Of a stretch of 64,000 nucleotides of DNA, positions 470 through 57,900 are shown one piece after another; the stretch's first letter is position 1; each line of letters opens with the position of its first letter. The DNA is taken from positions 8,370,001 to 8,434,000 of the forward strand of contig CM060732.1 of NCBI GenBank assembly GCA_030704615.1. Direction: 5' to 3'. This DNA is from Takakia lepidozioides (Eukaryota; Plantae; Bryophyta). The notes below the pieces were generated by a model. It ran no database searches. It saw nothing but the letters and a program-made list of their open reading frames with translations, and was not told the DNA's origin. A program made the position numbers and the translations under genes.

Positions 470-562
470 GTACAATTTCTCCTCACCAATACACCACTGA
501 TACAATTGCTCATAAGTAAGAGAAAAAAGATGAAAGAATTCAAAGGAGCTAATGGTCCGCAC

Positions 563-12307: not shown

Positions 12308-12985
12308 ATGTTCGAAAGAGGGAGTATGAGGGACACAATCAACGTCCCGCAGAGATTGATTGATCCCGCGTTACTCATGAGTGGGCAGGCGGCCGTGGGA
12401 GTGTTGGATCATGGAGCAGGGCCATCGATCATGGGAGCTGGAGGGGTGAATGGGGTGAACGGGGTAGACAGCCAGGCGCAGGATCAGGGGTCCAGAACAC
12501 CCAGCCGGTACGAAGCGCAGAAGAGGCGAGACTGGAACACCTTCGGACAGTATTTGCGCAACCATCGCCCCCCTTTAGCGCTGGCAAGGTGCACTGGGGC
12601 GCATGTGCTGGAGTTTGTGAGATATCTGGATCAGTTTGGGAAAACCAAGGTGCACCTGGCCTCTTGCCCCTTTTTCGGCCTCCCGCACCCACCCCATCCT
12701 TGCCCCTGCCCACTGCGCCAGGCCTGGGGATCTCTGGACGCACTCATTGGACGGTTGCGTGCTGCCTTTGAAGAGAACGGTGGGAAGCCCGAGTCCAATC
12801 CATTTGGGGTTCGGGCTGTGCGCCTCTACCTTCGCGAGGTGCGAGAAATGCAGGCCAAGGCGCGTGGCATTGCATACGAGAAAAAGAAGCGCAAGCGTCC
12901 CCCTCCCTCGGATACAGGACAGTCGAATGCCACTATAAGTGTAAATGCTAATGTCCATGTCGGACTCCCAGCTGGCATTCAATAA
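12308..12985 (+). CDS. LSH: ALOG-domain (LSH/G1 family) transcription factor, single-exon CDS, 225 aa
   Basis: [25 protein letters not shown]...[18 protein letters not shown]...[28 protein letters not shown]...[27 protein letters not shown] (ALOG domain plus NLS). Confidence 0.97.
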
Positions 12986-33059: not shown

Positions 33060-33900
33060 GAAGTCGGAATATGTCTAAGTGAAATGTGGTATCCTGGAGT
33101 TCAATGATTGCAGCATATGCCCAGCATGGGATGACATCAGGTACAATTCCAGCTTTCATGATGTCTTCATGGACCTTTTTCCCTTTTCCAGAGGGCTGCT
33201 AGGCTGGCACACACAATTCAAACACAAATGAATGTAATCTGGTCCGGCTTCACCCTTTTCCACATCATCTACTCATAGGTCTCCAAAGCCTCCATCCCAC
33301 ACCCGTGCCGGGAATATCCTGCAATCATTGTGTTCCATGACACCACATTTCCACACTGTCAAACACTCCCTTTGCATCTTTGATGCTGCCGCATTTGGCA
33401 TACATGTCCACGAGGCTATTGTTCAGAATGACATCAGGTACAATTCCTGCTTTCGTGATGTCATTATGGACCTTTTTTTCTTTTTCCAGGGTTGCTAGGC
33501 TGGCACATGCATTGCAAATGCAAATGAATGCAACCTGGTCTGGATTCACCCCTTCCCACATCATTTGCTCATAGGTCTCCAAAGCCTTCATCCCACACCC
33601 ATGCTGGGCATATCCTATAATCATTGCACTCCAGGGTACCACATCTCGCTTACTCATACTGTCGAACACTCCCTTTGCATCTTCGATGCTCCCCACATTT
33701 GGCATACATGTTCACCAGGGCAATGTACAGAATGACATCTGGTATAATCCCAGCTTTGATGATGTCAGCATGGACCTCTTTGGCTTTTTCCTGGCGCTCG
33801 CACATGCATTGCAAACACAAATAAATGCGACCTGGTCTGGCTTCACCCCTTCCCACATCATTTGCTCATAGGTCTTCAAAGCCTCCATCCCAGGAATGGC
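33060..33900 (-). pseudogene. PLS-class PPR gene fragment (about three ~300-bp P-L-S triplets) with frameshifts and stops
   Basis: LVDMYAKCGSIKDAKGVFD, DVVPWSAMIIGYAQHGCGMKALETYEQM, GVNPDQVAFICICNACASL. Confidence 0.88.
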
Positions 33901-36524
33901 AACCTTCTGTCAATCAATCCCATCTAGTTCAATTCATCACAACGCTAGCTCATGATCAAAGACGTATGCAGCTAACGGCATGATGGTCTTCACTAATTCA
34001 CTAGCACCTGCGTTTCATAAGCTTCTGATCCACCATGAACAATGACTTATAAGATCTTCGGTATATGATGGAAAATCAATCCCCAAGCTCGACTGACCTG
34101 CAGGTTTATGACAATGGCTCATGATCAAGGCGTGCAGACCAATTTCTCCCTGTCCACTTACTCCTAACGGCCTGCAATTTTACTGTGGGGCCTTATTGCC
34201 AGACTGTTCGCTGCCCTCACGCACACTCCAGCACTCCAACTCCACTGGTATGATAGGCTCTCTTGTTTCGTCCCACGCAACCTCTTCTATTGCCAAGTTC
34301 TGGTTGCGGTCTGCTAGGTAGCCCACGCCTCATACTATACAGCGTATTGATGGCCGTCTACACATTAATTAATGTCTTGCGAGGGCGTACCACAGCTGCC
34401 GAAGCCTCTATCCGGCTCCACCGTCTGGACGTCCTCTGCCCTGCTTATGCGCACTAGTATATCCACTGGTTGGAAAGGCTTCAGGAATTTTCAAGTGGTT
34501 CGTGAAGATGGCCAAGAAGCAGCCACGATATTAGCCTTCGTGTGCAACTTGCCTGCGAACCACTTCCAGCTATGCTCAATTGGAGCCTCGAGCCAGAATT
34601 TCGAGAAAAAGTCGAGTTCTTCTCCCTGCCGCTGTACTTTTTCACCTCCGCCTTCAGCTCCTAGTTCGCCATTGTTGGCGGCCGCTCGTGCATGAGCCGT
34701 AGCATCTAGCCGTAGCATGAGTCGTAGCAGGTCATAGCATTCACTTTTAACAAATATTCTTCTCAATGAAGGCTAGCAGGTTTCAACGATCAGTGCCCAC
34801 CACGGAATCACTTCAACGCTCGGCAACCCTGCAGTCCTCCTCACATATGCACACCTCGATCATGTAGGTTGGAAAACTGATTTGTGTGGTGGTGATCAGC
34901 AGGTCGACGAACCCACACAGTTATCTGGCAGGGCTGTCCCAGCCACGGCAATTGGGTCAGGTGCATCAGACCATCAATGTTACATTCGTGATTTGCCATA
35001 GCAGCATTAGACTTTCTTCACCGCCGCTGTCATGCCATTGCGAAATATTCAGATCTAACAAGCCAGGTTTCGTTCCAAGATTCACACCCGCCTTGTCACG
35101 ATCACCATAAAAGTCACTATCACCTTCCTTCTCCACAAATGTTGTGCAGTTCGTAATATCAGAAACCAGCTTGCCACTTGCGAGACGTTCTCAAAGTGCA
35201 AAGTCGTCTGAATTCCACATAGAACCGAAAGAGGTCCAGAGCCTCGGGCAAAACACAACAAGTCTTACCCAAGAAAAGAAGTTTACCGTCGACAACTACG
35301 AGCTGATTTGTCTGCACAACTGCAGCTCCTGCTTCGTATATACAGAGCCTACTACGAGGCTGTCCAAGCCTCCATCTCGCCTCTTATTTAGCATCCTGTG
35401 TGCCTCCCGTGCACAACATCGTACCGGACTACAAACGAAACGAGCAACAATGACTTCTATCTTAACCACTCATTACGAGTTGTGCTTTCCCTACTTCAAA
35501 TATCATCGACATAGTGCTAACATAAAAGAAATCTATCTAGCTTAGCACTACAAAACTAGACAGATCATCTCTCAACTTCACCCACAGACAACAAGCGTTA
35601 ACCTAAGACTCACACCTTGCACTCACAAGCATGAGAACCATCTTTCTCGAGTGAGAAGATGCACAAAACCAAACCAACGTTTCACTTATAAAATAAGAAT
35701 CAAGCCCATTGCATCCCAAGGCTTTGGGGAATCAACGGTACAAAACGCCATAGCTGAGCTGACAGACGAAGATGAGCCTCACTGAGTCGGCCGCGAGGAT
35801 AACTCCCCCAAGGACCCATTATTACTTTGGCCCTGGATTGACACTTGGGCAAACTCAAGTGTCAATACGTAACAACTAGTTATTTCGTAGCTAGTTCACA
35901 CTAGCTACCTTAAACTAGATAGTTTACTAACTAGTAATTTAACTATTTTTGGTGTGGGGGAGTTGTCGTTCTGATTTCTTGTGTTTGGATCCCCTCCATA
36001 CCTGCATGCTTGACTGTGCGCCATGCTAGTTTTGTGTGGGCGCTTGTTTTTATAGGTGATTGGTCCGGATTTGATCACCGGCCAGTCCTAGGGCATGCTG
36101 TCGATGGTGAGGCTGGGGTGATGACCAGCCAGACCATCATTGTTTCTCCTGTGGTGAGGTTGGAGGTGATGACCAGCCAACCATAGGAGTGCTTGCGGTG
36201 GATGCAGGTACAGGTGTAGGCTATGTTATGAACTTAGTATTCCAAACCATAAGCCGCAACAGGTTCTCTACCCGGTTACCTTGTGGAGAGGGGGTTAGGG
36301 ACATGTTCATGACCGGTTGAGTGTCAACACGGAGGTGCCACTAGTTGCTGGGGACAGTGCCGGTTCGAGCACTAGCGATACTAGTGGGTACACGAGACGA
36401 GGTGTGCGGTTTAGGCCACCTTCACCTCCTGTGTCTTCTAACGGAAGGTTCTGATTCGGATTGTGAATCAGGAGGACTCATACCGGCGGTGCAAGTTGTT
36501 TCTTTGCCATTGTTGTGGGACACA

Positions 36525-37620
36525 ATGGAGGAGATGTATGGAGCTACCAAGGGGCCACGAAGGTACTCTGGGGGCGGTGGGCACCATCGAGTTGGATGAT
36601 TTTATCCAAGAGTTTGATAGTTGGTGTGATTTGCAGCAAATGCGCAATCCACAACTATTTACGCCTTTCATGGCATGGAAGGGGCTGTTTCAGCACCTTG
36701 AGGGCCGCCTATGGATGATTACCATGAGTTCAGGCGGGGGCATGAGGTTGAGATCGAGGAGTGGAGGATGTACTGGTCACCCGACTATGTCTCCATCACT
36801 AGGGGCACTAGAGCCACGAGGGCAGTGGCTACACCTGCCGCTGCACCGGCAGCTTCAGCAAGTAGCAGTGGGACTGGTGGTACAGTAGCTACGACGTCCA
36901 CCCAAGCCACTACCGCACCAGCACTAGCACCCGTGCCTGCCTTCAACCCTGTTGTGGAGTTCTTCGAAGAGTTGAGAGGGAACTACCAAGGGGTGAGGAC
37001 AGAGAAGTTGCGGAGCTTGCAAGAGTTCCAACGGAAGCCGACCGAGAGCTTGAGGGAGGCTTTCACTCGCATGAGGCGCTTGATAAATGTAACCCAAGGG
37101 GTTACGGAAGCTCAGGCAGTCCAATTCTGGTATGGGATATTGGACAAGGAGCTGAGGAGAAGGGTGCGGGATGCAACTCTCCTACAAGCGGCCCAACCCA
37201 CCTTAGCAAATGTGTTTTTGCTGGCAGAGCGGATAGAGCTCAACATGGTGGAGGAACGAGTGGTCATGGTGGGATTTGCTAAGGAGACACCACGGGGTAG
37301 TGGTGCTCCTAGCCAACCACTACCTCAACGTGCTCAAGGCAACAAGGGGGCTCAGGTGAAGCTCAGGGAAGGGCAGAGAGGACCTCAGATGCAGGGGTCT
37401 CTCCCTTCATTTGCTGGCCAACAACGGGCGGATGTGGTGTGCTGGACATGTGGAGGACCCCATGTCAAGAAGGATTGCCCAGAGGGAGGCAAAGGGCGGC
37501 ACATGCACAGCCTGCACAGTTGCAGTGTGGGCATTGTGGCAAGCACGGGCATGGAGAGGCCCAGTGTTATGGTTTGCATCCTGAGTTGCGCCCAGGCCAG
37601 TTCCAAGGGAACAATGGTGG
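36525..37620 (+). CDS. gag: Gag with two zinc knuckles (frameshifted)
   Basis: ELDDFIQEFDSWC...FQRKPTESLREAFTRMRRL; CWTCGGPHVKKDC and CGHCGKHGHGEAQC. Confidence 0.85.
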
Positions 37621-38479
37621 CCGGGGGCGAGGTGGAGCAGCCCAGAGGGACGAGGTGGCCAGCCACGAGGCCAAGGGCAAGCTCAACGTGGCCAAGGACG
37701 CGGAGGTCAGGGTGTTGACCAAGGCATGGCCAACCGGCTTCAGCAGCTAGAGCAGAGGCTCGCTGCCATGGCTACAGCTCAGGTGGTACCGGCTCTAAGG
37801 CCGGATGGTCCACCTCCTGCTCCTGAGGGAGGAGATATGGGAGGCATGGGATTCATGTGTGGAGCAGCACTACCACTAGTGCAGGTGGAGTCTGCTGCAG
37901 CCGTGACTCGAGGAGCAGCACGAGTTCCTGAGCCACGAGGTGCAGAGGTGGAGTTGGATCCACAGCGTGGGGAGGCAAGCCGTCAGGCTAGGCTTCCTCA
38001 GTCATTCACATTGGCGGAGACAGTGTCGACGCCATCCATGGCACCTAGTTCTCGCCCGACTGTTACCGAGGCGGAGGTTACTATGCCATTGGGGAGAGCT
38101 ACACGGGTAGCACCACTACCTAGTGTTGCCAAGGCTACGGCAGCTAGTGTGCTGCTAGGAGCGGCCACATCTGTGTGCCAGGCTCCATTGTTCTCGGCTA
38201 CCATGATTGCGACGCCGGGGGTAAGACCAGCTGAGGTGTTTCAGGCTGGCAGCTACACTCTGTGAGAGTGGGGAGGTTACTTCATCTTCTGCGGAGATAG
38301 TGGGAGGTGTAGTGCCGGAGGGATCCTCGGATTTGAGGGTCAAGACTGCCACGGCGGCGCCATGGCAAGCTGCAGCTGCCAGGTTGATGGAGCTGCCAGC
38401 TAGGCCAGCCATTGAGCGCCATGGTGACACCTGGAGTTGTCATGTTAGACAACCAGGATGGCATTTTCTGTTTGAGTGG

Positions 38480-38880
38480 ACCGGCAGGCAAGAGGTACCG
38501 GCCACTGCGGGTCTTGTTGGACTCGGGAGCTCAGCCATTGATGCTGGGCAGAGCTGCTATTGCAGGCTTGGGCCTCACGGAGGCGGATATGGAGCCTTGT
38601 CCTTTCCAGATACAGACGTCTCTGGGAGGATCGGAGCAGGCTCGGGGCATGACACGGCGTGAGTTGGCTATCAGACTACGGCCGGATCACCCTACAGATG
38701 GCTCAGTGATGCGAGCCAAGGCCATTGTGACAGACGCAGTCTCATACGATGTCCTGGTTGGTGGGGCAGTGTTGTACCCCATGGGCTTCACCCTGGATTT
38801 TTGGGAGGAGTCAGCTTCCTATAGGCCTGCATGGCAGTCAGGGGAGGGCCGGCGTGTGCAGCTCCCTGTGACGTTCATAG
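38480..38880 (+). CDS. Retroviral-type aspartic protease
   Basis: RVLLDSGAQ ... YDVLVGGAVL. Confidence 0.88.
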
Positions 38881-39228
38881 GAGGAGTTGCGGTTGCCCAG
38901 CGAGGCAAGATGCCGACACTAGCAGCATTCACAGCGGCAGTGAGTTGGCCTAGAGAGTTGCTTGAGGGCAATGCTCATTCAGAGGATGTACCACCTCCGG
39001 GAGAGCAGGATGACATGTATGGTATGGCGGAGTTGCCTACCATGGTTGCTCAGACTCCATTGTGGGGCACGAGCAAGGATTTGCAGCGGGATGCTGATCG
39101 ACGGGTGCAACAAGCCTGGGTGGAGGCTTTTGTACCGTCAGGAGAGGAGGAGAGTGTGGGGATTGCACCAGGACCACCTCAATTGTCTCCATTGGACACC
39201 ACACCTATTGTGTGGCAGTCTCCGGATG

Positions 39229-40175
39229 AAGGCATTTGTCTTCTGGACTTGTTTGGCGGGATCAGCACCGGATTGGCTGCTGTGTTACAGGCAGGTGTAC
39301 GAGTTCGGCGTTACCTATGTGGAGAGGGATGAGACTGCACGACGCGTTTCACTTCGCCATGTTGCTCAGTTGGTGCAGCGGTACCCTGAGTTGTTGTCGG
39401 TGTCTGCAATTCGTGGATATCAGCAGGCCTTGCCAGCAGACATTTCGTTGCTGGGGGCGCAGGATTTGGAGCGGGTTGGCTCCATTGATCTGGTAGTGGC
39501 AGGTTGGCCCTGCCAAGGGCATTCATCAGCCGGGCATGGCAATGGATTGCGAGACTCGAGGTCGGGTCTGTTTTGGGAGATGGTGCGGGTTTTGCGCCAC
39601 TTGCAGCTTCATCAAGCTGTATCTCCAGCATACATCTTGGAGAATGTGCCACTGATGGGCGATTCTCGGGCCAGGGTGATGGCCAGTGTGCATCAAGTCC
39701 GGTCGTGGCTTGGGTCAGCAGTTTGCTAGATGCAGCTACTGTGGGTCACGGGCTCATCGTCCACGGCTATGGTGGACTAACATGATGCCACCCGCACTGC
39801 TCAAGCGTGCATTTGATGGGGTGCAGCGGCCAGCACATCTCACAGTGGATAACATTCTGGACACAGGGAGGCAGTCTCAACGTGTGAGACACGATGACCG
39901 TTCGCCTTTGGCAGTGGTCAACAAGGTGGGTCAACCACGAGCAGCATTACCTACACTGCTCAGCTTCCCAGGATCGCATGCTTTCCGGGATAGTGGACCT
40001 GGCCTCCTGTGGGATGCTCAGTTGCAGCAGTTAGTGGAGCCTAATGCTGACGAGCGTGAGCGGGCAATGGGTTTTACCACTGGTACCACGGCGGTGTCGT
40101 CTCTTTCTGAGGCATCACGTCGTCAAGTGTTGGGGCAAGCAATGGATCTCAATTGCTTGACCTGGATTATCAGCT
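39229..40175 (+). CDS. C5-cytosine DNA methyltransferase domain, DNMT3-like, embedded in the polyprotein
   Basis: Motif I LLDLFGGISTG, II YVERD, IV DLVVAGWPCQGHS (catalytic PC 39508-39513), V RSGLFWE, VI YILENV, VIII DAATVGSRAHRPRLWWTN, IX ERERAMGF, X RRQVLGQAMDL. Confidence 0.93.
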
Positions 40176-40473
40176 TGGCTCTGCTGAGCAACGCAGAGTG
40201 CGGAATACACTTCCCTCAATGGTCTCTCTGCCTACCGAGACGGTACAGGCAGTGAGTGGGGGCGAGCATGTGAGGACCACGGGGTGCATGCATCCATGGC
40301 ACACGTGGGAGGTGCTCGAGGTTCAGAGGGAGTTGGCAGCCAAGGCGGCTGTGATGGATGAGGTTGGGGATTCTTCTCGGTTGAGGAGGTCCTCAAGGAT
40401 GAGATGATGGGGGCAGGATGAGGCCTTGTCATTGACTGAGCAGGCAGGGAGTACTGCTCAAGAGGTTGCAGCA

Positions 40474-40482
40474 TAGCAACCA
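40474..40482 (+). other. Candidate stop-codon readthrough signal UAG-CAA-CCA
   Basis: In-frame TAG between DNMT and RT, identical at 53546-53554 in copy 2, matching UAG-CAR-YYA. Confidence 0.6.
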
Positions 40483-40589
40483 CGGGACGCGTCCTCTACC
40501 TCTAAGCCCACTGGACTTAAGGTTGTAGTTACGGAGGACAATTGGGAGCCTGACATTGGACCCATTGTCACCGGGAGAGAGACGACGTA

Positions 40590-41960
40590 TACGGCGGTTC
40601 CTGAGGGCTTACAGGAATTGCTTTGCCTTCAGTTTGAAGGACTTGGGAGCACTGAAGGGTCAAGAGATCCGTATTGAGGGCCACTGACACGCCAATCTTT
40701 CGGAGACCCTATAGATACAGTGACATGGAGAGGTCTTTGATTCAGATGAGGACTCAAGATCTCTGGGAGGCAGGTTTGGTGGAGCTCTCTGGTGGAGAGT
40801 ATGCTTCAGCCACAGTGATGCCAGCCAAGAAGGATGTCTATGGCAATTGGACGGAGAGACGTATGTGCGGTGATTACCGGCCTGTAAATCGTCAGACCAA
40901 GTCCGATAAGTATGCCATGCCAACACCAGAGGAGATCTTTGATGCCATCGGGCATGCTAAGGCCTTTAGCACTTTGGATTTACGATCCGGATATCACCAG
41001 TCCAATCAAGGAGGCGGACAAGCAGAAGACGGCATTCTGGGGGATCAATGAGCACGGCAAGGATTGCCTATATCAGTGGCGGTTCTTACCATTTGGGCTT
41101 AAGAATGCTCCTGCAGAGTTTCAGAGAGTCATGGATAGGATTCTAGCAGGGGTGGACTTTGCTCGGTGCTACATAGATGACATCATCATCTTTAGTGTTA
41201 CGATGGAGGAGCATGAGAGACACCTTCAGGTGGTATTGGAGCGCTTGAGAGCGCACGGATTGAAGTTGCATCCGGGGAAGTGCAAGTTTTTCCACAACCA
41301 GATTGAGTATCTGGGTCACATGATATATCCTGGAGGATTGGGGGTACAGCAGACTAAGGTAGAGGCCATTGCACAAATTCCACGCCCCACGGATGTGAGC
41401 CGAGTTCGAGCTTTCATGGGGTTGGCAAACTATTATAGACGGTTTGTCAAGGGATTTAGTACCATTGCAAAGGCTCTAACCAAGCTGACCAAGGTGGACC
41501 AGGAGTGGCAGTGGGAAGATGAGCAGGAACGAGCTTTTCAAGAGCTCAAGGCGAGGTTGACCTCGGCGCCTATCTTGAGACGACCTATCAGGGGGCGTCC
41601 CTTTCAGCTGCATACGGATTGGAGCATGCTGGGGCTTGGAGCGGTGCTCACACAGGTGGATGATGAGGGAAGAGAGTTCGTAGTGGCTTACGCTAGCCGC
41701 TCGAACAACGCTGCAGAGGCTAAGTACAGCTCATATGAGGGAGAGTGCTTAGCTGCAGTGTGGGCCGTGGCACACTTCAGGTGCTATCTATACGGCAATC
41801 TTTTCACCCTTGTCACGGATCACCAGCCACTCAAGTGGTTGATGGAGTCAGACAAGCTTACGGGGAAGCTTGCACGGTGGCACTTATACTCCAGGAGTAT
41901 GACTTTCAGGTTGTGCATCGACCGGGTTTGGTCAATCGGGATGCGGATGGATTGAGTCGC
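40590..41960 (+). CDS. pol: Reverse transcriptase and RNase H
   Basis: RMCGDYRPVN, FSTLDLRSGYHQ, LPFGLKNAPAEFQR, YIDD (~41170). RNase H: LHTDWS, ECLAAVWAV, VTDHQPL, ADGLSR. Confidence 0.95.
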
Positions 41961-42339
41961 AATCCATGCATGAGCCAGCAGGATGACACTGGAGCTCGGT
42001 GGCATGGTGAGACGGACGAGGAGATGGTGCCGGGATGGCACGCATCTGCATTTTTGTGTATCTTGGCATCGGGAGGTCAGATTGGACCTACAACAGGGAT
42101 GACTGTAGACGGAGTGTCTGAGGACCCTGAGGCTAGTGATGAGCTAGGTGGTGCCAGAGATATACATGAGGATTCGGCTGTGTTGGACTACCTCCGCACG
42201 GGAGACACGGCAGCCATTGTGACTGCCAGGGAGAGGGATCGGATCCTGCAACGAGCCAAGAGGTTCAAGTGGGAGGGGATACACCTACTTCGAGTGTGGG
42301 AGGATGGTCGGGTGAGGATTGTGCCTCACCCCACACAGC

Positions 42340-43400
42340 GTGCACGGTTAGTGCGGCATGCCCATGAGGAGTTGGGGCATTTTGGAGTGCGACGCACTCA
42401 CAGTTTACTGCAGGGGCAGTATTGGTGGCGTGGTGCATACAGAGGTGCAACAGTTTGTGGCTAGGTGCATGGTGTGTGACAGGGTGCGTGCTTCATTTAA
42501 ACGCCCCTACACCACAGTTGCATCCTTTACCTATCATGGGATTGGGCTACAGGTGGAGTCTTGACTTCGCAGGACCGTTGCCACTGACTATGCGCCACCA
42601 CAGATATGTGTTGGTGATGGTGGAGCACTTCTCCAAGTGGATTGAGTTGGTTCCATTGCCTGACAAGGCTAGTGAGGGGGCTGCGTATGCATTCTTGGAT
42701 CGTGTGCTTAGCCGATTTGGTGCTCCAGCTGAGGTACTCACGGACCAAGGGAGAGTTCTTGGGGGAGTTTCAGGCTTTGTGTGATAAAGCCTTGATAGAC
42801 CACCGCACCACTTCTCGGGATCATCCTGAGGCCGATGGCTTAGCAGAGAGAGTTGTTCAGACGGTGAAGAGGGGTTTGCGCAAGTATGGCTTGCAGAAGG
42901 GACACCTAGGAGATTGGGATCTTCAGGTTCCTTGGTTAGCCATGGGCTACAGGTTCAGCAAACAAGCATCACTTGCCTCCTTCTCACCATATTTCCTTCT
43001 CTTTGGCCGAGAGCCGGATTTGCCTGCAGCCATTCGTAGGGACACTGCTCAAGTCCTTAACCTTGACGATCCGGACGTGTGGGTACGTGCATGTGATCAG
43101 CGTGCAGAGTTGTTCAAGAAAGTCATGCCCATGGCTTTTGAGAACCTTGCCATTGCACAGCACCGTGATACGTTGAGGTATGCCACTATACGTGGTGGAG
43201 GATATCGTCCTGGGGTTCGGAGGTTTAGCCCTGGTGACTATGTTTATTTGCAGCAGACTGCTCCTACGACTCTGGATGTTACTGCAGGGCGTGTTATTCT
43301 GAGGGTTCGAGAGGTGTTGCCCTCAGGGGTCCTGATCTTGAGGGTCGGGATGGCATGACTTGGAAGGACCATGTGCGTAATTGTGCGCCATGTCACCTTC
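42340..43400 (+). CDS. DDE integrase
   Basis: HEELGHFG...CMVC zinc finger; WSLDFAGP, LTDQG, ADGLAERVV; FSPYFLLFGREP. Confidence 0.93.
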
Positions 43401-43454
43401 CCAATCGATGGCAGAGTTGACCCAAACTTGGCAGTGGTACCTGCAGGTTTGAGG

Positions 43455-43589
43455 TGCATGCTCTGTGGGTCTGCCAAAGGGGCAGCCACCATGCTGGTGT
43501 GTGATCGATGCTCAAGGGGTTGGCATATGGGATGCTTGACACCACCTCTTGAGAAGGTTCCTGACGGAGATTGGTTGTGTCCACACTGC
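43455..43589 (+). CDS. PHD finger at the integrase C-terminus (stop at 43650-43652)
   Basis: CMLC...MLVCDRCSRGWHMGCLTPPLEKVPDGDWLCPHC, a C4HC3 pattern. Confidence 0.93.
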
Positions 43590-43857
43590 TGGGATAGTGG
43601 CAGTGGACATGACTGGAGGCAGCTAACAAGACATGGGAGGCCAAGCTCATAGGAGTCAATACATGAGATCCCAAGCTCAAGTTCACAGGTTGCAAGACGG
43701 CGACTAACGATGGGGCAACTCTTGCACCCGGCCTCTTGATCTATCGAGTTTGAGTGTAGTAGGGATAGTGGTGGAGGACTTAGTGAGGCTATGGTCACTA
43801 TCACATCTTGTGGCTACCTGGACTTAGAGGGACCTAAGCACCAGCTAGGGGGGCGAT

Positions 43858-44558
43858 TGTGTGGACTAGTGACTGCCATAGTGGGCAGCGTAGTGGCAGC
43901 CTAGACTGACTAGTTTGTAGCCTAGTGGTTGGACTAGTGGCTGGACTAGGTAGACTAGTGGTATACTAGTGTGTGGTGTGCACATGTGTTGTGTGGTTTT
44001 GGACAGCGATGTAGTTGTGTAGCGATATGTATGCGCACGACAGCTGTCAAGTTATTTTACCACTAGTGTGAAACTAGCTAGGAAATAGCTAGCTTTTACA
44101 TATTGACATTTGGGATTGGCCCAAGTGTCAATCCAGGGGTCAAGGCAGATTTAGGCCCTGGAGTGGTTATCTTCACGGCAAGCGCGGGAGGCTCATCTTT
44201 CTCGAGTTGAGCCTCACCGCGCCTAGCTATGGCGCCGTAGTGTGGATTCCCCATGGCGTGGGGTGCACTTGGCTTGACTTGTATTTGAGTGATGAGGTTA
44301 TATATGCATGAGTTTATGCTTCAGCTTTGTGAGCTCGCATGAGCTTGTGCTTGTATTCTTCTTCTTTATCATTGTGGACTAGTGACTGCCATAGTGGGCA
44401 GCGTAGTGGCAGCCTAGTGACTGACTAGTTGTAGCCTAGTGGTTGGACTAGTGGCTGGACTAGTGGTAGACTAGTGGTATACTAGTGTGTGGTGTGCACA
44501 TGTGTTGTGTGGTTTTGGACAGCGATGTAGTTGTGTAGCGATATGTATGCGCACGACA
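43858..44558 (+). repeat. 3' terminal structure: ~185-bp direct repeat (43858-44042), 330-bp spacer, direct repeat (44373-44558)
   Basis: Both units start tgt(g)tggactag, contain ctagtgg microrepeats and end gcgcacgaca. Confidence 0.9.
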
Positions 44559-45329: not shown

Positions 45330-46925
45330 AATGTTGTGTAGTTGCTCAGAGTGCCATGGTGGCAAGTGGCAGCTACGCAAGACAGTAAAGAATCACCTCC
45401 TCTTGCATCGTCGGGACCCGAACCTGAGGTACTCTATAGTTCCAGTACGCACTCCATACTTACTCCACATGCACTTCTGACCTGATGTCTCATTTTTTGA
45501 AATCACCGCCAGTCAGGAGCGCCATGATTGCCTAACAAAACACGTGTCTCACATATGTTGGCTGTGGGGCCGTGGGTAGTCATGGCCGTGACTACACTTT
45601 ATGCCGTTGGTAGTCCTAAGCACGGCTACACCTGTTCTCACGATCGCGTGACGTGTGTCCTAACCTCCACACATGCACCAAAACACTTCAAGTAAGTAGA
45701 TTAACGGGGGCGTTTCAATCCTAGATTAGTCTAACCTTGCGATTAGGGTTCGACGATGAACCTCAAAGACAACCTTGGATCCGCAAGGATAGGTATTGAT
45801 AATAGCCAAGCGCATTGTTGAACTGCTGAAGTGAATGAATCAAGCACAATTCCAATTTGCAAAAATGGCTTCGTTCCTAAACAATATTTGAACTGGCCCA
45901 AGGCATACCAGCTGACAACATTGACTTGTCATTTCGCGTTTATTGATGTATCTGCACTGCTGAGTCATGCTTCGGTGCTGCAAATTGCAGGCTCACATTA
46001 TGTATGTTGAAGATTTGGACAGGGAGGAAGGACCGTCCAATCCTACACCTGAAACGAGGGGTGTGGGTGAACCTGACCAATAACAACTTTTACAACAAGA
46101 GATGCAACGTGCTTTGCAAGAGGCTTTTGAAACAACTGACAGAATCAGAAGGGACGTGACTTGTCAAACGAATGAAGATGAATTTAGCATTCCCCATGCA
46201 AGCACTGAGGAACCAGGCAATGCCACAAATTCAACTGGGTTGCACGACGGAGGTGGGATGGCGACGGAGGATGAGAGGCAACAATATGAGGGAGACTACG
46301 CCAAAATATTCAGTGAGTCACATATTCCTTTGTATGAAGGGTGTCATCATAGTTGATTGACAGCATCTTTGATGCTGCTGAATTGTTGCACGACCCACAA
46401 GTGTACAAATGCGTTTGTGAATGAGCTCATGTCATTACTGAAGGATTCATTTTTGCCTAAAGAGAATGTGTTACCGAAATCACATTATGAGGCAAAAACA
46501 ATGATCGTCAGGATGGGGCTAGCATACAAACAGATTCATGCCTGCGAACAGGGTTGTGTATTGTTCCGTGGAGAGCTTGAAAAAACGGAGATTTGCCCAA
46601 AGTGCCAAACTGGAAGGTATTTTGCAGGTCGTGGGAAGGTGCCTAAGAAAGTTTTGCGGCACTTCCCTCTCATACCCAGGTTGAAACGAATGTTTAGAGT
46701 GAAATCGGTGGCAGAGCTCATGAGTTGGCATATCAATCACAAAAGCAAGGATGGGCTCGTTCGTCATGCTGCAGACAGCAAAGCCTGGTCGCACATTGAA
46801 AACACTTGGCCGGAGTTCGCATCAGATCCACGAAACCTGCATCTTGGTTTGGCATTGGATGGGGTGAATCCTTATGGCGCAAAATCTACGAGTTGGTCAA
46901 CGTGGCCCATCCTACTACTCTACTT
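45330..46925 (+). mobile_element. CACTA (En/Spm) transposase, 5' part, truncated
   Basis: MLCSCSEC...NHL exon at ~45330. ORF 46357-46947 has IHAC...CVLF...CPKC...LRHFPLIPRL...DSKAW...DPRNLHLGLALDGVNPY...STWP (Transposase_21). Confidence 0.9.
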
Positions 46926-46932
46926 CTACACA

Positions 46933-47595
46933 GGCAGGGATAGCTGAAGGTCTAGATTCATCCAAGAGGACCGGGTTTCAAACATAAGATTACTACTGAT
47001 TCCCTGTGGACCAATGGCTACAAGAAATCTGCATGGGTAGATGGTCAACTGGAAACAGAAGCGGCAGCAGCACAATTGATAGAACAAGGCACTGCTAATG
47101 AAGGCACCTTCAACACATTTCAGCCTATTTTTCCCTGTTATCAGAGTCGTCCTTTAATTTTCATGTTGAATTCTGCAAGTTAGCTGGTTGAGTGAACCTT
47201 TGATAGTTTGGAGTGACTGACATGATACGGCCAATGTGACAACAGGAAAGTATTGAGAAACAGGTAACAGAGACGAGGAGAAGCTGTCATCAATGGTAGG
47301 ACAATCGAGGCAAAAAGGTGAACGCATGTGGGATTACAGAGAATAGCAGATGCAATTGAGCATAGGAACTAGTGTGATAAGCTGAGTTGGGTGTTTCCTA
47401 GAACAAATCTAGGTTGTCATTGTTAGCTGCTAGCAGCAAGGCAAGGATGAATGCATTATTTGTGGAGAGGCAGGATAGCTGAAGGTGCAGGGATAGAGTG
47501 TGGGTCCAGATTCATCCAAGAGGGCCAGATTTCAAGCTCAAGATTACCTATGATTCCCTGTGGATCAATAGCCACAAGAAACCTACATGGCTAAG
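46933..47595. repeat. Dispersed repeat: two local copies (~46933, ~47470) plus one at ~18228
   Basis: Shared gcag(g)gatagctgaagg...agattca(t/c)ccaagagg. Confidence 0.6.
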
Positions 47596-49547: not shown

Positions 49548-52500
49548 ATGGAAGGCACATTTGCGGAACTGGTCTCCACCTTGCAGAGTCTCCAGCTCCA
49601 GATGCAAGAACTTCGTACCTCTAATGCCCAACTACAAGCTAATCAGTCTCAAGATCTTGACAACGCTCTCAACAATTGGCAACAACAAATTTCAGAGTTG
49701 AAGGAGTCGAACAATGGATCTTCAACCATACGAGTCCCTACTGCAACAACTCCTACTGCAACGGTTCCTCCAAATCTTCAACAGATTACAAGGGTACCAA
49801 AGATCAGCATGCCTGAGAAATTTGATAGCACGAAATCAAGATTTTGCGATTTTGTTCAACAAGTACGATTGTTCCTACGACTACATCCACAACGCTACCC
49901 CGATCAAGGTATTCAAGTGGGATTCGTGGGCACCCTTCTATCAGGCACTGCCCTATCTTAGTTTGCATCGCTATTAGAAAAAATTTCACATTTAATATAC
50001 AATTTTGAAGCGTTCTTGTTCGAGTTCACTGCAACGTTTGGAGAGAATGATAGAGAGAGAGTTGCAGAGACAAAGATGCGAAATCTTCGACAATGAGCAT
50101 GTCCTGCTTCCGTTTATTCTGCCGAATTTCGACAACTTGCGTGCGACCTCGATTGGAATGAGAAGAGTCTCATTAGTGGGCTAAAAGATGATGTAAAAGA
50201 TTTGTTGCTGACAATGTCAAACGTGAGTACACTGAGCGAATTCATCATTCAAGTCATTGCATGCGATAATCGCTTGTTCGAAAGACGTCAAGAGAAGTAC
50301 CGGAACTGTGAAGCAATGTGCAGGGTCTGAAGGTAGAAAGAGACATTTTTTTGGTGAGGAATTTGTGGTGTCCAGCCACATGGTCTCTACTGTGACTGGA
50401 CATCTTCGTTTTTCGACCCTATAGTATCCAAGACTCAGCCTGGAATTTTGTGTAGTTCTCATTCACAATTTGCTCTTCTTCTTCGTAATAGAGACATAAT
50501 CCATTCGAGCGTCGTCTTTGTTTTTCTTGTGGTGTCAATGGCTTGAATCGGACAACATCAATCTGCATAGGATCACTACCGGATGTCTGATGGATTGTTG
50601 TGTGAAACACTTTTGGACTCAGGGGCTTCAGCACGTTTTATTGATAAAAACTTTGCGAAACAACACAATTTAACGCTCGTAAAGAAGAAATTTTTGGCCC
50701 CCGTTGAACTCATCGATGGACGATCGTTAGCATCAGGAAACGTTGACCATGAAACTCGACCCCTTGAAGTGAAGCTTAAAAATCAAGCATCACAAATTGT
50801 TTTCAACGTCATCCAGTCTCCAACGAATCATGTGATCCTTGGACTTCCCTGGTTTGTACTTCATAATCCTGACATCGATTGGCGATCGTGAAAAATTTCG
50901 GCAAGACAAAAATGCAAAAGTACCAAGGGTATCCAACCCATGTTTCTTGGAGCTAGAGCCTTCATGAGAGCTACAAAGAAAGACACGACATTTGCATTTT
51001 ATGCGACTCCGATCAACACCACAACAGACCAAGGTACTTTGACATTACCCACTCAATATCAAGATTTTAAGGATGTCTTCGAGAAGAAAAATGCAGACAT
51101 ATTGCCAGAACATTGACCTTATGATTGTGCAATCGAGTTGCAATAAGGAGCCCAACCACCATTTGGCCTAATCTACAATTTATCTCAGACGGAGTTGGCT
51201 GCTTTACGCGAATACATTGATGAAAATTTGTCAAAGAATTTCATTCGACATTCAAAATCACCCGCGGGAGCACATATCTTATTTGTGAAGAAGAAGGACG
51301 GATCGTTACACATGTGTGTAGATTATTGTGGGCTCAACAAAGTCACTATAAAAAATCGTTACCTACTACCACTGATTTCCGGACTCCTCGAACAACTTGG
51401 ACGAGCAAATTTTTTCACAAAGATCGACTTGAGATGAGCTTACAACCTTGTACGAATAAAAGAAGGAGACAAATGGAAGACAACTTTTCGCACAAGGTAC
51501 AAACATTTCGAATACAGTATTATGCCTTTCGGTCTTACAAATGCTCCAGCAATTTTCCAACATATAATAAATGACATCTTTCGAGAATTTTTAGATGACT
51601 TTGTAGTCGTCTACTTAGACGACATTTTGATATTTTCACAGAATGAAAGAAAACATGGTCGCCATGTACGCCTTGTCCTTGATAAATTGAGGGAAATAGG
51701 GTCATATGCCAAGTTGGCTTTTCCATCAATCTGAAGTCCAATTTTTGGGCTACATTATTTCCGATAAATGAGTCTTTATGGATCAGAAGAAAATACAAAC
51801 CATCATCGAGTGGACTAAACCAACTTCGGTCCGAGATGTACAATGTTCTCTGGGGTTTGCAAATTTCTATAGAATCTTCATCAATGACTACTCCAAAATT
51901 GTTGCACCATTGACACGACTCACATGGAAAAACAAACTTGTATGGGACGAGAAGGCTGACCAGACATTTGAAAGGCTGAAGTAGGCATTTACAACGGCTC
52001 CAATTCTGGTACAAGAATGGGCTCTGGGAGCTGAGGTTATATGGACAATATTATGGATTTGAAGAAAAGGAGCATGTATGACTACAAGGTCACTGTCTAC
52101 ACCGATCACAAAAACCTCGAGTATTTTATGAGTGCTCGTGTTTTGAATCGACGTCAAGCAAGATGAAGTATGTCACAACAAGATTTGATTTTGTTATTAC
52201 CTACCGCCTCGGACATCTTCAAGGAAAACCAAATGCTCTTTCTCGACGATCGGATCTTGCGCCAAAAGAAGGGGATGCAACTTTCGACCAATAGAAATCC
52301 ATCATCTTGAAACCAATAAATCTCCAATTGAATACGGTATCCATGTTCACCTATGACGATGCAACGATCATCAGGGAGATTCAGGAAGCACTGAAGAGCG
52401 ACCAATTTGCTACGACACTACGAAGTCAACTAAATCGACCTCGAGACAACCCACATGTTACAAACGACTTCGAATTTAAAGACGGTTTGCTTTATTTCAA

Positions 52501-52712
52501 GGGACTTCTCTATGTACCTCCGGGACGTACACAACTCCGGATTCTTCAAACACATCATGATTTTTCGGCTGCGGGACATTTTGGCCTCAATAAAACAATG
52601 GAATTGATATCCAGGGACTATTGGTGATCGCAAAATGTGGAAACTAGTGAAATAATTTATAAAATCTTGCGACACGTGTGCTAGAGTGAAGGGACCACGA
52701 CATCGAAGACAT
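49548..52712 (+). mobile_element. Degenerate chromovirus-like Ty3/gypsy gag-pol with many stops, truncated in the integrase Zn finger
   Basis: [61 protein letters not shown]...CDTC. Confidence 0.92.
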
Positions 52713-55692
52713 GGGAGATGGTGCGGGTTTTGCGCCACTTACAGCTTCATCAAGCTGTATCTCCAGCATACATCTTGGAGAATGTGTCACTGTTGGGATT
52801 CTCGGGCCAGGGTGATGGCCAGGGTGCATCAAGTCCAGTCATGGCTTGGGTCAGCAGTGTTGCTGAATGCAGCTGCAGTTGGGTCACGGGTTCATCGTCC
52901 ACGGTTATGGTGGATTAACTTGATGTCACCTACACTGCTCAAGCGTGCATTTGATGGGGTGCAGCGGCCAACGATGACCGTTCTCCTTTGGCAGTGGTCA
53001 ACAAGGTGGGTCAATCACGAACAGCACTACCTACACTGCTCAGCTTTCCTGGATCACATACTTTTCGGGATAGTGGACTTGGCCTCTTGTGGGATGCTCA
53101 GTTGCAGCAGTTAGTGGGGCCTAATGGCGATGAGCGCGAGCGGGCTATGGGTTTTTTCACTGGGACCACGGCGGTGCCTTATCTTTCTGAGGCATCACGT
53201 CGTCAGGTGTTGGGGCAAGCAATGGATCTCAATTGGATTATCAGCTTGGCTATGGCTGAGCAGCCCAGAGTGCGGAGTACACTTCCCTCGATAATCTCTC
53301 TGCCTACCGAGATGATACAGGCAGCGAGTGGGGGCAAGCAGGTGAGGACCACGGGGTGCAGACATCCATGGCCCATGTGGGAGGTGCTCAAGGTTCAGAG
53401 GGAGTTGGCAGCCAAGGCGGCGGTGATGGATGAGGTTGGGGATTCGCCTCGGGTTGAGGAGGTCCTCAAGGATGAGATGATAGGGCAGGATGAGACATTG
53501 TCCCTGACTGAGCAAGCAGGGAGTACTGCTCAAGAGGTTGCGGCATAGCAACCACGGGACGCGTCTCTTACCTCTAAGTCTGCTGGACTTAAGGTTGCAG
53601 TTACAGAGGACAATTGGGAGCCTGACATTGGACCCATTGTCACTGGAGGAGAGAGACGACGTATACGGCGCTTCCTACAAAACCAAAGGGGGCAGGTATT
53701 GGGACTTAGGTAATGAAGTCTGGCAGGGGTTTACCACCTGGTATTTCTCACACGCTGAGACTGCCTCCCTGTGTCCAAAATGCTATCCAGGAAGCGCCGT
53801 ATACGTCGTCTCTCTCCTCCAGTGACAAGGATTTGGGAGCACTGAAGGGTCAGGAAATTCGTATTGAGTTGGCTGCTGACACGTCAATCTTTCGGAGACC
53901 CTATAGATATAGTGACATGGAGAGGTCTTTGATTCAAATGATGACTCAAGATCTCTGGGAGGCTGGTTTGGTGGAGCTCTCTGGTAAAGAGTATGCTTCA
54001 GCCACAGTGATGCGAGCCAAAAAGGATGTCTATGGCAATTGGACGGAGAGACGTATGTGCGGTGATTACCGGCCTGTAAATCGTCAGACCAAGTCCGATA
54101 AGTATGTCATGCCCACACTTGAGGAGATCTTTGATGCCATTGGGCATGCCAAGGTTTTTAGCACTTTGGACTTGGATGGATTGAGTCGCAATCCATGCAT
54201 GAGCCAGCAGGATGACACTAGAGCTCGGTGGCATGATGAGACGGATGAGGAGATAGTGCCCAGATGGCATGCATCTGTTTTTTTGTGTATCTTGGCATTG
54301 AGAGGTCAGGTTGGACCTACAACAGGGATGACTTTAGTCGGAGTGTCTGAGGACCCTGAGGCTGGTGATGAGCCAGGTGATGCCAGAGATATACATGAGG
54401 ATTTGGCTGTGTTAGACTATCTCCGTACGGGAGACACTGCAGCCACTGTGACTGCTAGGGAGAGGGATAGGATCCTACAACGAGCCAAGAGGTTCAAGTG
54501 GGAAGGGATACACCTGCTCCGATGGTCGGGTGAGGATTGTGTCTCACCCCACACAGCGTGCACGGTTAGTGCGACATGCCCATGAGGAGTTGGGGCATTT
54601 TGGAGTGCAACGCACTCACAGTCTACTGCAGGGGCAGTATTGGTGGCGTGATATGCACAGCGAGGTGCAAGTTGCAACAGTTTGTGGCTAGGTGCATGGT
54701 GTGTGACAGGGTGCGTGCTTCATTCAACGGCCCTACACCACAGTTGCATCCTTTACCCACCATGGGATTCGGCTACAGGTGGAGTCTTGACTTTGCAAGG
54801 CCGTTGTCACTGACGATACGTCACCACAGATCTATGTTGGTGATGGTGGAGCACTTCTCCAAGTGGATTGAGTTGGTTCTGTTGCCTGACAAGGCTAGTG
54901 AGGGGGCTGTGTATGCATTATTGGATCGTGTGCTTAGCCGATTCGGTGCTCCAGCTGAGGTACTCACGGACCAAGGGAGAGAGTGGCTAGTGGCAGTCTA
55001 GTGGTGGACTAGTGGCTACACTAGTGGTGGCTAGTGGCAGTCTAGTGGTGGACTAGTGGCTGTACTAGTGGTTGACTAGAGGCAGCCTAGTGGTGCACTA
55101 GTGGTGGACTAGTGATAGACTAGTGTTTGGTGTGCACGTGTGTTGTGTGGTTTTGGACAGCGATGTAGTTGTGTAGCGATGTGTATGCGCACGACAGCTG
55201 TCAAGTTATTTTACCACTAGTGTGAAGTTAGCTAGAAAATAGCTAGCTTTTATATATTGATATTTGGGATTGATCCAAGTGTCAATCCAGGGACCAATAT
55301 ATGTTTGGGCACCTGGCGTGGTTATCTTCACGGTAGATCGTGGTGGGCCCATATTTCTCGAGTTGAGCCTCACCGCGTCTAGCTATGGCGCCGTAGTGTG
55401 GATTCCCCATGGCATGGGGTGCACTTGGCTCGACTTGTATTTGAGTGATGATTCTATACATGCGTGAGTTTATGCTTCAGCTTTATGAGCTCGCATGAGC
55501 TTGTGTGTATTCTTCTTTGTTTATCATTGTGATGGACTAGTGACAGCCTAGTGGTTGACTAGTGGCTAGACTAGTGGCAGCCTAGTGATTGACTAGTGGC
55601 TGCACTAGTGGTGGACTAGTGTTTGATGTGCACATGTGTTGTGTGGTTTTGGACAGCAATGTAGTTGTGGAGCGATGTGTATGCGCACGACA
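52713..55692 (+). mobile_element. Rearranged, deleted second copy of the DNMT-encoding gypsy element (DNMT C-half, partial RT, partial IN, same repeat-spacer-repeat end)
   Basis: Colinear with 39574-42755 apart from deletions. Terminal units ~54984-55196 and 55528-55692. Confidence 0.92.
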
Positions 55693-57900
55693 AAAAAACC
55701 CGTTGTCTTTGAAGAGTACCCCCTCGTCCATGAGTGCCAGAATATTTGTGTTGGGAGTGAGATCTTCTCTTAGACCAGGGAAAGCTTCCGCATATGCTCC
55801 CTAGGTGACCGCTGAGAGGGCTTGAAGAGAGTAAAACGGGAGGTTGGAGGGGAGATAATCCTGAATCTTCGTACAAAGCGTCAGTATTGGGCTGTTATCC
55901 ATAGGGGGTTTTTCCATAAATGAGTGCACATCCTGAACCGTGATACAAATTGAATCCAGGTGCATGTTGTCCTTTGCGGTGACCAGGAAAGCAGGCCGGG
56001 GTGTTCTTTTGAAGACCATTGGAGTGACACAAGCAGCGACTGGAGCCTCAGAGGATTTGAGTTGCGAGCAGCCTCTGAGAGCCAGAGTTCGGAATGATTG
56101 CAGCTTTGTGCAGATCTTTGCAATTACTGGGTTGTAAGCGATGGCAGCAGGGCGAGGGAGAGGCCGGGGGGATCCACCAGTGGTCTCTTCAAAATGCTAG
56201 AGCTTGAGGCTACAGACTTCCTTTTGATGGCTGCCGCTTCGATCTCCCATCCGATTATACGGTGTTCTCCAGGGTGGGGGTTTGATGTCGGAGAAGAGTT
56301 GTGAATAAGGGGAGCAATACCAGCCTCCAAGTGGGTGAAACCAGCCCTTTTCCTTTTTAGCTTTGGGGCAATCTGCCTTGAGGTGCCCAGTTAGACCACA
56401 GTAATAACAAGCTGAGGATGATGTATCTTCAGACACTTTAACAGAGAAAAAGTTACCCTGATCATCTATTGGAAGTCTAATGAATTATGGCAGAATTGTG
56501 TCATTAGGCATCATAACCATGATCTTTGCAAATCCATTTTCATGAAGCCTTGATGCAATGGTCATACCTTTCCATGCTGGGTCCTTCCTCAATTCCTCCG
56601 TGCACATGCTGGGATCAAACACCGCCAAGCAACCCAAAAATGAACCGAAGAAATTGCCAATATCTGGAAGGAAGTGGAGATATTGGTCTGGGATATAAGG
56701 AAGAGAGATGATCCTAGGACTCCCATACTTTACCATTCATGTTTCCCATATTCTTGGACCAAGGAATATGTTTACGTTAAACCCATGCAAGTGAGGATTG
56801 AAGGAGAGGGCTGTACTCGCTGCCTCTTTGGATTCCATCCAATAGAGAGAAGCCCTTCCTCTTGCTTGACAAAAGTGATGGTGCAGGTCACCTGAACCAC
56901 CTAGGTGCCTGACGGCCCAGTCTCTCATGAAGGCTCTGCCAACCTTTTTTCCCGGGAAGTGCAGGATGATCCCCCTGCTCTCATTTCCGCAACCCGACTT
57001 TCAAGGTGGGTGGTTTTGATGTTGACAAGCGGGTGGTCCTCGCTCATGTTGTCCTGCAGAGCATCAGTCTCAACAGACGACCCATCCGAGAGATCAGTGT
57101 CCTGACTAGGAGGAGATCGTGGTGACTCGTCTACACTCACCGGCATCAGTATTGAGGGCCCCTGGGAAATCTCCACTGTGCTGGGAATTGGTGGGCGGGA
57201 CGACGAGGAGGGGTCCATGACACTGAGACCTCTGGATTGCGCTTGATGCGCCATGAAGAATCCCGTTCCAGTGGAGGGCTACAAGCGCCGAGGAACTCCG
57301 AATCTAGTGGGACCTGATCTAGATGGAGCAGGTTTGAAGGCTTTATTGAGAAGAGGACCCATCGTTGGAGAGTGGAGATTGCAGCTTGTAGTACGCGGGA
57401 GATCACGTAGCTTGAGAAAGGTGAAAGAGAAGTGCTAAGTAGATCGAGATGGCAGGGAGTGAAGACTTACGGGAGCTGGCGGGCAAGGGGCCTGCACTCT
57501 TCAAAAGGAGAGAAGCACGGGCCGGAAGGAGAGGTTGAGGCTGGATGATCAGTTGAAGCAGGGACGCGACGTGAGGGGGACCTAGAGGGAAGTTAGTGAA
57601 GGTGATGGCTGCTTGGTGGCTGAGGCCAAAGTTTGTCGGTGATCATTACTCAAATGGAAGAATGAGGGGGATGATTGGTTGGGGCGGGGTTTAATGAATG
57701 AAAGTCGAGGATGGCACAGTTTGAAGGCGGCTTGGCATTAAGGGAGATTGATGAGGACTTACCATCGGTACAGATTTCAAGCATGCCGAAGGGATGAAGA
57801 TGGCAAGTTCATCAGGGGATGAAGCCAAAACATGAGGCTTGAAAATGACGTTCCGAGAGAAAATAGGGCGATGATGCAGGATTAAAATGATGCTTGGGGT
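55693..57900 (-). mobile_element. Degenerate LINE ORF1-like region with zinc knuckle
   Basis: LPYIPDQY...IGNFFG... followed by CYYCGLTGHLKADCP. Stops and frameshifts are present. Confidence 0.65.

Follow-up and report, generated by a model that had tools for sequence, protein, structure and literature searches.

A PHD finger at the integrase C-terminus of a methyltransferase-encoding Gypsy element in Takakia lepidozioides, with a predicted role in integration

A PHD finger is encoded at the very end of the pol region of a decayed retrotransposon of Takakia lepidozioides, and the question raised by this locus is whether the finger belongs to the integrase that precedes it and, if so, what it might do for the element. 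The window (the whole stretch of DNA analysed, 64,000 nucleotides in length) had previously been read from its letters alone. The original prediction was that an intact finger occupies the place at which chromoviruses have a chromodomain, in an element that also encodes a DNA-methylating enzyme, and that integration, and perhaps methylation, is steered by this finger to particular chromatin. The reading favoured here, which we consider reasonably probable, is that the finger is the C-terminal PHD of the integrase of a dead Gypsy-DNMT copy, and that in working relatives it is predicted to dock on histone H3, thereby biasing insertion.

The finger and the element that carries it

A complete C4HC3 PHD finger, with all eight zinc ligands present, is found on the plus strand at positions 43455–43589 of the window, counted from the first to the last ligand. 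The ligands are spaced C-x2-C-x11-C-x2-C-x4-H-x2-C-x14-C-x2-C. The finger is recognized by Pfam PF00628 (E 7.4e-12; 45.5 bits, cut-off 24), the C4HC3 pattern is matched at this site only in the six frames of the whole 64 kb, and no second copy of the finger was found in the window by tblastn with a 97-residue piece (next best match, E 1.7). An AlphaFold2 model of 43404–43649, built with 70 relatives, has a pLDDT of 89–94 across the finger, with a mean of 80 over the region modelled, and the modelled finger superposes on solved PHD fingers with an rmsd of 0.6–1.4 Å over 45–53 columns, at 35–47% identity. Foldseek yielded 37 PDB matches to this model at E <= 0.001, and all the matches listed are PHD fingers. 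The eight ligand columns are invariant in an alignment of relatives (A1), the rows of which were picked by this same ligand pattern. The finger comes shortly after the C-terminal domain of the integrase, at the C-terminus of pol, as had been claimed. Its frame is closed by a stop 20 codons past the last cysteine, and the proteins of the nearest relatives end 2–13 residues past the finger. The description of the finger as intact stands for the finger itself, which is complete and was placed at its exact coordinates, but not for the frame upstream, which is broken by a TGA and by frame shifts.

Judging from its sequence, the element bearing the finger is a Ty3/gypsy retrotransposon with a C5 DNA methyltransferase (DNMT) of its own. 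The finger-bearing copy (copy 1), counted from its gag near 36.7 kb, ends at 44558. The features of copy 1, and the second copy present in the window, are as follows:

36702–37715, plus strand: probable gag ORF (PF03732, E 0.0024, 18.5 bits, below the cut-off of 24.1)
38944–40204, plus strand: C5 cytosine DNA methyltransferase, in at least two frames (PF00145, E 8.5e-13; motif IV P-C-Q)
41047–41886, plus strand: reverse transcriptase (RT) and RNase H (PF00078, E 4.3e-25; PF17917 and PF17919, E ~1e-33)
42330–42440, plus strand: Integrase_H2C2, N-terminal zinc-binding domain (PF17921, E 2.3e-08)
42548–42754, plus strand: integrase (IN) catalytic core, rve (PF00665, E 6.2e-10, in ORF 42368–42781)
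42768–43339, plus strand: post-core integrase region including the C-terminal domain, in the frame of the finger (72% identity to P0002 over 42768–43601)
43340–43403, plus strand: out-of-register stretch with TGA at 43356–43358 (three-frame translation against relatives)
43404–43454, plus strand: linker from the integrase C-terminal domain to the finger, in the register of the finger (comparison with eight relatives)
43455–43589, plus strand: C4HC3 PHD finger (PF00628, sole pattern match, AlphaFold2/Foldseek)
43590–43652, plus strand: short post-finger tail, to the stop TAG at 43650–43652 (translation)
43860–44558, plus strand: 3' terminal split repeat B-A-B (B 43860–44042, A 44043–44372, B 44373–44558)
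52712–55692, plus strand: second copy (copy 2), 5'-truncated and internally deleted, with no PHD region (~90% identity to copy 1)

The order RT, RNase H, IN in copy 1 is that of a Ty3/gypsy pol, with the DNMT upstream of the RT, where it also lies in the Klebsormidium nitens protein P0096 and in P0013, an intact relative. P0013 has Ty3 Gag-Pol as its best PDB match (E 2.2e-94), and RT matches dominate its results. The claim that a DNA writer is present in the same element was confirmed by the PF00145 match and by motif IV of the methyltransferase, the P-C-Q of which aligns to M.HhaI; the Klebsormidium nitens protein P0096 and P0013 both match 39415–40204, within the DNMT. Searches of the PDB by phmmer with DNMT stretches returned only the motif IV of M.HhaI and M.HaeIII, or nothing: there were no matches to the C-terminal half of the window DNMT, nor to a 390-residue DNMT stretch of P0032. 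The label "DNMT3" rests on the published description of the K. nitens relative (PMC5890265).

Copy 1 is dead: it cannot make the protein, because its pol is interrupted by several frame changes and a stop. The mapping of homologous proteins places these frame changes before the RT, at ~41000, at ~41900 and twice around the integrase core, which is in a different frame from the integrase parts on either side of it (a frame 2 piece, 42449–42766); the RT and the region preceding it are in frames different again from those of the integrase core and the finger. The TGA at 43356–43358, between the integrase and the finger, falls within an out-of-register stretch of ~65 nt (about 43340–43403), where, by comparison with eight relatives, the integrase C-terminal domain has its conserved end in a frame other than that of both flanks. 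The family is highly repeated in the organism (23,811 matching contigs in one public run), and many of its other copies, in same-organism contigs from public runs, have length differences at ~43339, 43404, 42750 and 43589; the stop-bearing out-of-register stretch is absent from many of them. A 1205-nt contig derived from another copy spans 42738–43589 (one public run, which is only presumed to be RNA). Among about 1 in 100 of the raw reads of each of two RNA runs, none matched, a sample too small to speak for or against transcription. The out-of-register stretch also contains a P-C-H motif (43386–43394), about 25 residues before the finger; at least 90% of 71 aligned sequences retain this motif (A1 columns 969–971), and a longer form, C-x2-C-H, occurs in 126 of 234 sequences.

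Copy 2 begins inside the DNMT and is devoid of the parts matching 40978–41945 and 42755–43860; it has no finger because the latter part is missing. The split repeat B-A-B is present in both copies (55020–55692 in copy 2), and both end at the matching point (44558 and 55692); the two B units of copy 1 are 97% alike. No ordinary LTR pair and no 5' boundary of copy 1 were found. The B and A units have no direct copy upstream of gag in copy 1, and the sole 5' match to the 3' repeat, at 35831–35904, is 76 nt long, inverted and derived from part of A. These split repeats would fit the remark made in PMC5890265 on the DIRS-like repeats of the K. nitens element.

Both copies lie in a transposable element (TE) island situated between a PPR gene and a tRNA synthetase gene, together with other TEs; these and the host genes of the window are listed here:

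552–887, minus strand: OSCP host gene
12284–12982, plus strand: ALOG gene, of a land-plant transcription-factor family (PF04852, E 2.4e-63)
33328–33711, minus strand: PPR repeats, host gene, ~2 kb upstream of copy 1
46357–46944: Transposase_21 fragment, CACTA-type, between the two copies (E 5.5e-19)
50571–52624: second Gypsy, unrelated, with protease, RT and integrase zinc domain (~31% identity to the first in the RT)
56200–56484, minus strand: zinc-knuckle gag, in the TE island
58488–61094, plus strand: Trp/Tyr-tRNA synthetase gene, ~3 kb downstream of the TE island

The PPR repeats are encoded on the minus strand by three tandem units of ~297 nt (33092–33892). The second Gypsy ends where copy 2 begins, which suggests nested or adjoining insertions. 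The observation that both copies are flanked by TE sequence is correct in that they adjoin other TEs, but the finger is present in copy 1 only. The further step, that such an arrangement fits heterochromatin targeting, carries little weight with two copies, one of them fingerless, and it is weak because host genes are found within 2–3 kb.

Integrase, finger and methyltransferase across the clade

Relatives were sought with 42618–43652 as the query, read with X at the stop, and 152 longer proteins were returned, 120 of which were listed; as this query contained the finger, the counts that follow describe this clade only, rather than Gypsy elements overall. Among the matches listed, PF00628 is present in 118 of the 120 relatives, nearly always together with rve. 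A full scan produced 352 cluster representatives at E <= 1e-30, and for most of the best 150 of these the alignment is one unbroken stretch, from query residue 45 to about residue 328, which takes in the integrase core, the break and the finger. The distance from the end of rve to the start of the PHD is 207–220 residues in all 18 of the finger-bearing polyproteins scanned. The full ligand pattern is found in 235 of 250 relative proteins; 12 of the remaining 15 have a cut or altered finger and three end before it. In the protein sequences of intact relatives, integrase and finger are thus one open frame, at a fixed distance, and the original prediction, which was to fall if the PHD proved out of frame with the integrase, holds on this point. 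The fusion is kept, at the level of sequence, across hundreds of diverged polyproteins of the green lineage. The chromodomain PF00385 is absent from the ORFs of the window and from all 120 listed relatives.

The best of the named relatives is from Marchantia polymorpha (72% identity), and the others are from Klebsormidium nitens, Pleodorina, Tetrabaena, Astrephomene, Haematococcus, Chlamydomonas eustigma and Chromochloris. The M. polymorpha protein (P0002, Mp_7g09570) matches the window at 38724–40081 and then at 42768–43601, and its gene model runs from a DNMT part straight into the integrase C-terminal region and the finger; it is probably an internally deleted element that has been annotated as a gene.

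P0013 has DNMT, RT, RNase H, IN and PHD in a single polyprotein of 1516 residues. Pfam (precomputed) flags a DNMT in only 11 of the 120 listed relatives; blastp with the DNMT stretches of two relatives detects a DNMT-like region in 106 of 249 relative proteins. In the 105 proteins with both RT and IN, this region is located between RNase H and IN in 64 and before the RT in three. No DNMT-like stretch is seen in the other 38, many of which start just before the RT, so an upstream DNMT is possible in these proteins. In an alignment of 85 such regions, at least 80% of the sequences retain the methyltransferase motifs, the catalytic P-C and E-N-V among them. Most chlorophyte relatives have a DNMT-like domain of ~330 residues between RNase H and the integrase. 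In a midpoint-rooted FastTree phylogeny built from 105 IN-PHD rows, the two DNMT layouts are split by a 98* branch into group I (the window, Marchantia and P0013 are among its 32 rows) and group II (73 rows, the named members of which are all Chlamydomonadales). Whether the DNMT is before the RT or between RNase H and IN, the finger does not change its place on the integrase.

Comparison with known elements

Two sources on Gypsy-DNMT3 elements were found: the paper describing KnitGypsy-Dnmt3 of K. nitens, a Ty3/gypsy element with a DNMT in the pol frame, upstream of the RT (PMC5890265), and a 2026 preprint in which "Gypsy-DNMT3" of streptophytes is named (bioRxiv 10.64898/2026.05.21.726589). 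KnitGypsy-Dnmt3 has the DNMT-before-RT order in common with the window element. The K. nitens protein KFL_009030040 (P0096) matches 38502–43328 of the window in six pieces, at 39–48% identity; this protein is incomplete and stops short of the finger. Repeats of the K. nitens element are given as those "of a DIRS retrotransposon" in the legend to Fig. 4c of PMC5890265, and the 3' repeat of the window element is of an unusual, split form. The word PHD is absent from the main text and the three supplementary text files of PMC5890265, a statement that applies to text as distinct from figures. The host of the window element, unlike K. nitens, is a land plant, as its ALOG and PPR genes indicate, and the nearest named relative of the element is in M. 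polymorpha.

PHD fingers are common accessory domains of Chlamydomonas TEs (PMC9940879, PMC8557442) and of retrotransposons (PMC8557442, PMC6673714), and fusions of both PHD and Chromo domains with TEs are reported across eukaryotes (bioRxiv 2021.11.30.470311). In Chlamydomonas reinhardtii, the Gag-Pol of Gypsy-7a_cRei has a PHD finger (Craig et al. 2022, PMC9940879). Intergenic insertions of this element are 2.6 times more frequent than expected, an excess that led the authors to suggest targeted insertion (PMC9940879). The legend to Fig. 6 of that paper puts the PHD before INT, a position that may differ from that in the window, and no DNMT is mentioned in the passage on this element. No C. 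reinhardtii protein is found among the named matches to the window query. Another case is provided by Ginger1-9_HM of Hydra, the Gypsy-integrase-like transposase of which has a PHD among its C-terminal extra domains (PMC2836005); this is an animal cut-and-paste DNA transposon with a Ulp1 protease domain and neither RT nor DNMT, whereas the window element is a retrotransposon.

A parallel in position is found with chromoviruses, in which a chromodomain follows the C-terminal domain at the tail of a Gypsy integrase (PMC3605345, PMC3350952, PMC6317226), the very place that is taken by the PHD in the window. The job proposed for the two is the same, the tethering of integration to a chromatin state, and chromodomains direct integration (Gao 2008, cited in bioRxiv 2021.11.30.470311). 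The algal Chlamyvir clade was considered as a carrier of PHD fingers and rejected, as Chlamyvir carries chromodomains.

Both Gypsy-DNMT3 elements and Gypsy polyproteins with PHD fingers have thus been published already, and the idea of PHD-steered integration is not new (PMC9940879, PMC6673714, PMC5890265). No description of the chlorophyte layout RT, RNase H, DNMT, IN, PHD was found in the Gypsy-DNMT3 and green-algal Gypsy literature. The new points are the constancy of the finger's place on the integrase across the two DNMT layouts, the loop charge of the window's subgroup (described below) and the DNMT-like domain of chlorophytes.

Predicted ligand and possible roles of the finger

The likeness that had been noted to BAZ, CHD4 and KDM5-PHD1 fingers was borne out by both sequence and predicted fold. 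The best 60 PDB sequence matches include CHD4 PHD1/2 (E 2e-18), DPF3 PHD2, KDM5A/B PHD1, PHF12, ATXR5, PHF21A/BHC80, WSTF, BAZ2A/B, UHRF1, AIRE, KAT6A and ORC1b; ING, BPTF and TAF3 are not among these 60. The top Foldseek ranks are held by DPF3 PHD2, BAZ2B/A, DPF2, UHRF1, Lid, ATXR5 and BHC80, with several of the PDB entries matched being titled as complexes with unmodified H3, and with UHRF1 entries containing the non-histone peptides PAF15 and Stella at ranks 38–39. The solved fingers that bind the N-terminus of unmodified H3, and that match best in sequence (E 2e-18 to 1e-9) and in fold, are BAZ2A (4q6f), UHRF1 (3zvy), ATXR5 (5vab), ORC1b (5hh7), BHC80 (2puy), DPF3 (5i3l), KDM5B PHD1 (2mny) and CHD4. 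These comparisons support the placing of the finger, by likeness, in the unmodified-H3-reader type. The window finger and the solved fingers of this type have equal ligand spacing and a conserved Asp after the third Cys, which is kept in 218 of 235 fingers of the clade. The finger has only two aromatic residues, and an aromatic cage for trimethyl-lysine is unlikely because both occupy conserved core positions.

One feature sets the window's subgroup apart from the solved unmodified-H3 fingers, namely a non-acidic loop between zinc ligands 2 and 3. In the unmodified-H3-reader class, the lysine-4 contacts may be carried by this loop. In the window it corresponds to 43464–43496 and has a net charge of +1. 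Of 30 group I sequences, 18 have a loop with a net positive charge, the window among them, and eight a negative one; in group II the net charge is negative for 53 of 64. The assignment to H3K4me0 readers is therefore less safe for the window's subgroup, given its neutral or basic loop, and if the loop makes the lysine-4 contacts, this subgroup may read something other than H3K4me0. The difference in charge also hints that the ligands of the two groups differ.

The mechanism proposed for working relatives is that the finger would bind the N-terminus of H3, most likely without a trimethyl-lysine cage, and would prefer H3 tails lacking K4me3, as the probable absence of a cage implies. By analogy with chromovirus chromodomains, it would then tether the integration complex to nucleosomes in a particular state.

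Another possibility is that the finger serves the element's own DNMT, directing or switching on methylation rather than integration through an ADD-like sensing of H3K4me0. Host DNMT3 reads H3K4me0 via its ADD domain. Reader and writer are joined in the single polyprotein of the intact relative P0013, a DNMT-like domain occurs in 67 of the 105 RT+IN relatives, with its catalytic motifs conserved in most of the regions aligned, and the nearest solved fingers include readers of unmodified H3. Against this, the finger remains at a fixed distance from the integrase core (18/18), whereas the DNMT is found in two places; the RT, RNase H and IN of the window's group put more than 1100 residues between the DNMT and the finger, and processing by the protease would be likely to separate the two. 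The 38 RT+IN proteins with no DNMT-like stretch also speak against such a role, though with the reservation that many begin just before the RT. A role in methylation is thus unlikely: as the place of the finger is constant and that of the DNMT varies, the comparison of sequences favours a job in integration over one in methylation, though reader and DNMT occur together often enough that some link between them is possible.

A partner other than a histone, such as a host chromatin protein, a non-histone peptide whose N-terminus resembles that of H3 or a nucleic acid, would give the finger a role in nuclear entry, in complex assembly or in protection from silencing. The UHRF1 entries with PAF15 and Stella among the closest folds, and the loss, in the window's subgroup, of the acidic loop seen in most other family members, are consistent with such a partner, but most of the nearest solved fingers bind the histone H3 tail, and chromodomains, known as integration tethers (bioRxiv 2021.11.30.470311), sit at the same spot on the integrase tail. 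We regard this explanation, too, as improbable.

A broader scenario would combine the two functions. The PHD-tipped integrase and the DNMT3-like enzyme would form an old linked pair in a very large Gypsy clade of the green lineage, its chlorophyte branch included, in which the finger would both dock on K4-unmethylated H3 and act as the ADD-like histone sensor that the DNMT is without, with the element methylating DNA at or around its landing site; this is quite a long shot. A chance Cys/His pattern, or the capture of a host exon unlinked to pol, can be dismissed almost entirely as the source of the finger: a stop and frame changes do part it from the integrase in copy 1, but this idea is refuted by the PF00628 match (E 7.4e-12), by the same distance in 18 of 18 polyproteins, by alignments running through the break and by the confinement of the stop to a short out-of-register stretch that is missing from many family copies.

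A finger that docks the integrase on H3 and biases insertion remains the favoured reading. The value of this particular locus is small, because the copy is dead and its layout has already been described in part, in K. nitens and Chlamydomonas. If the finger does steer integration, the clade would provide a second, independent case of a Gypsy integrase with a histone reader, besides that of the chromoviruses, and the pairing of such a reader with a writer of DNA methylation would make these elements a natural system for the reading and rewriting of host chromatin by a transposon.
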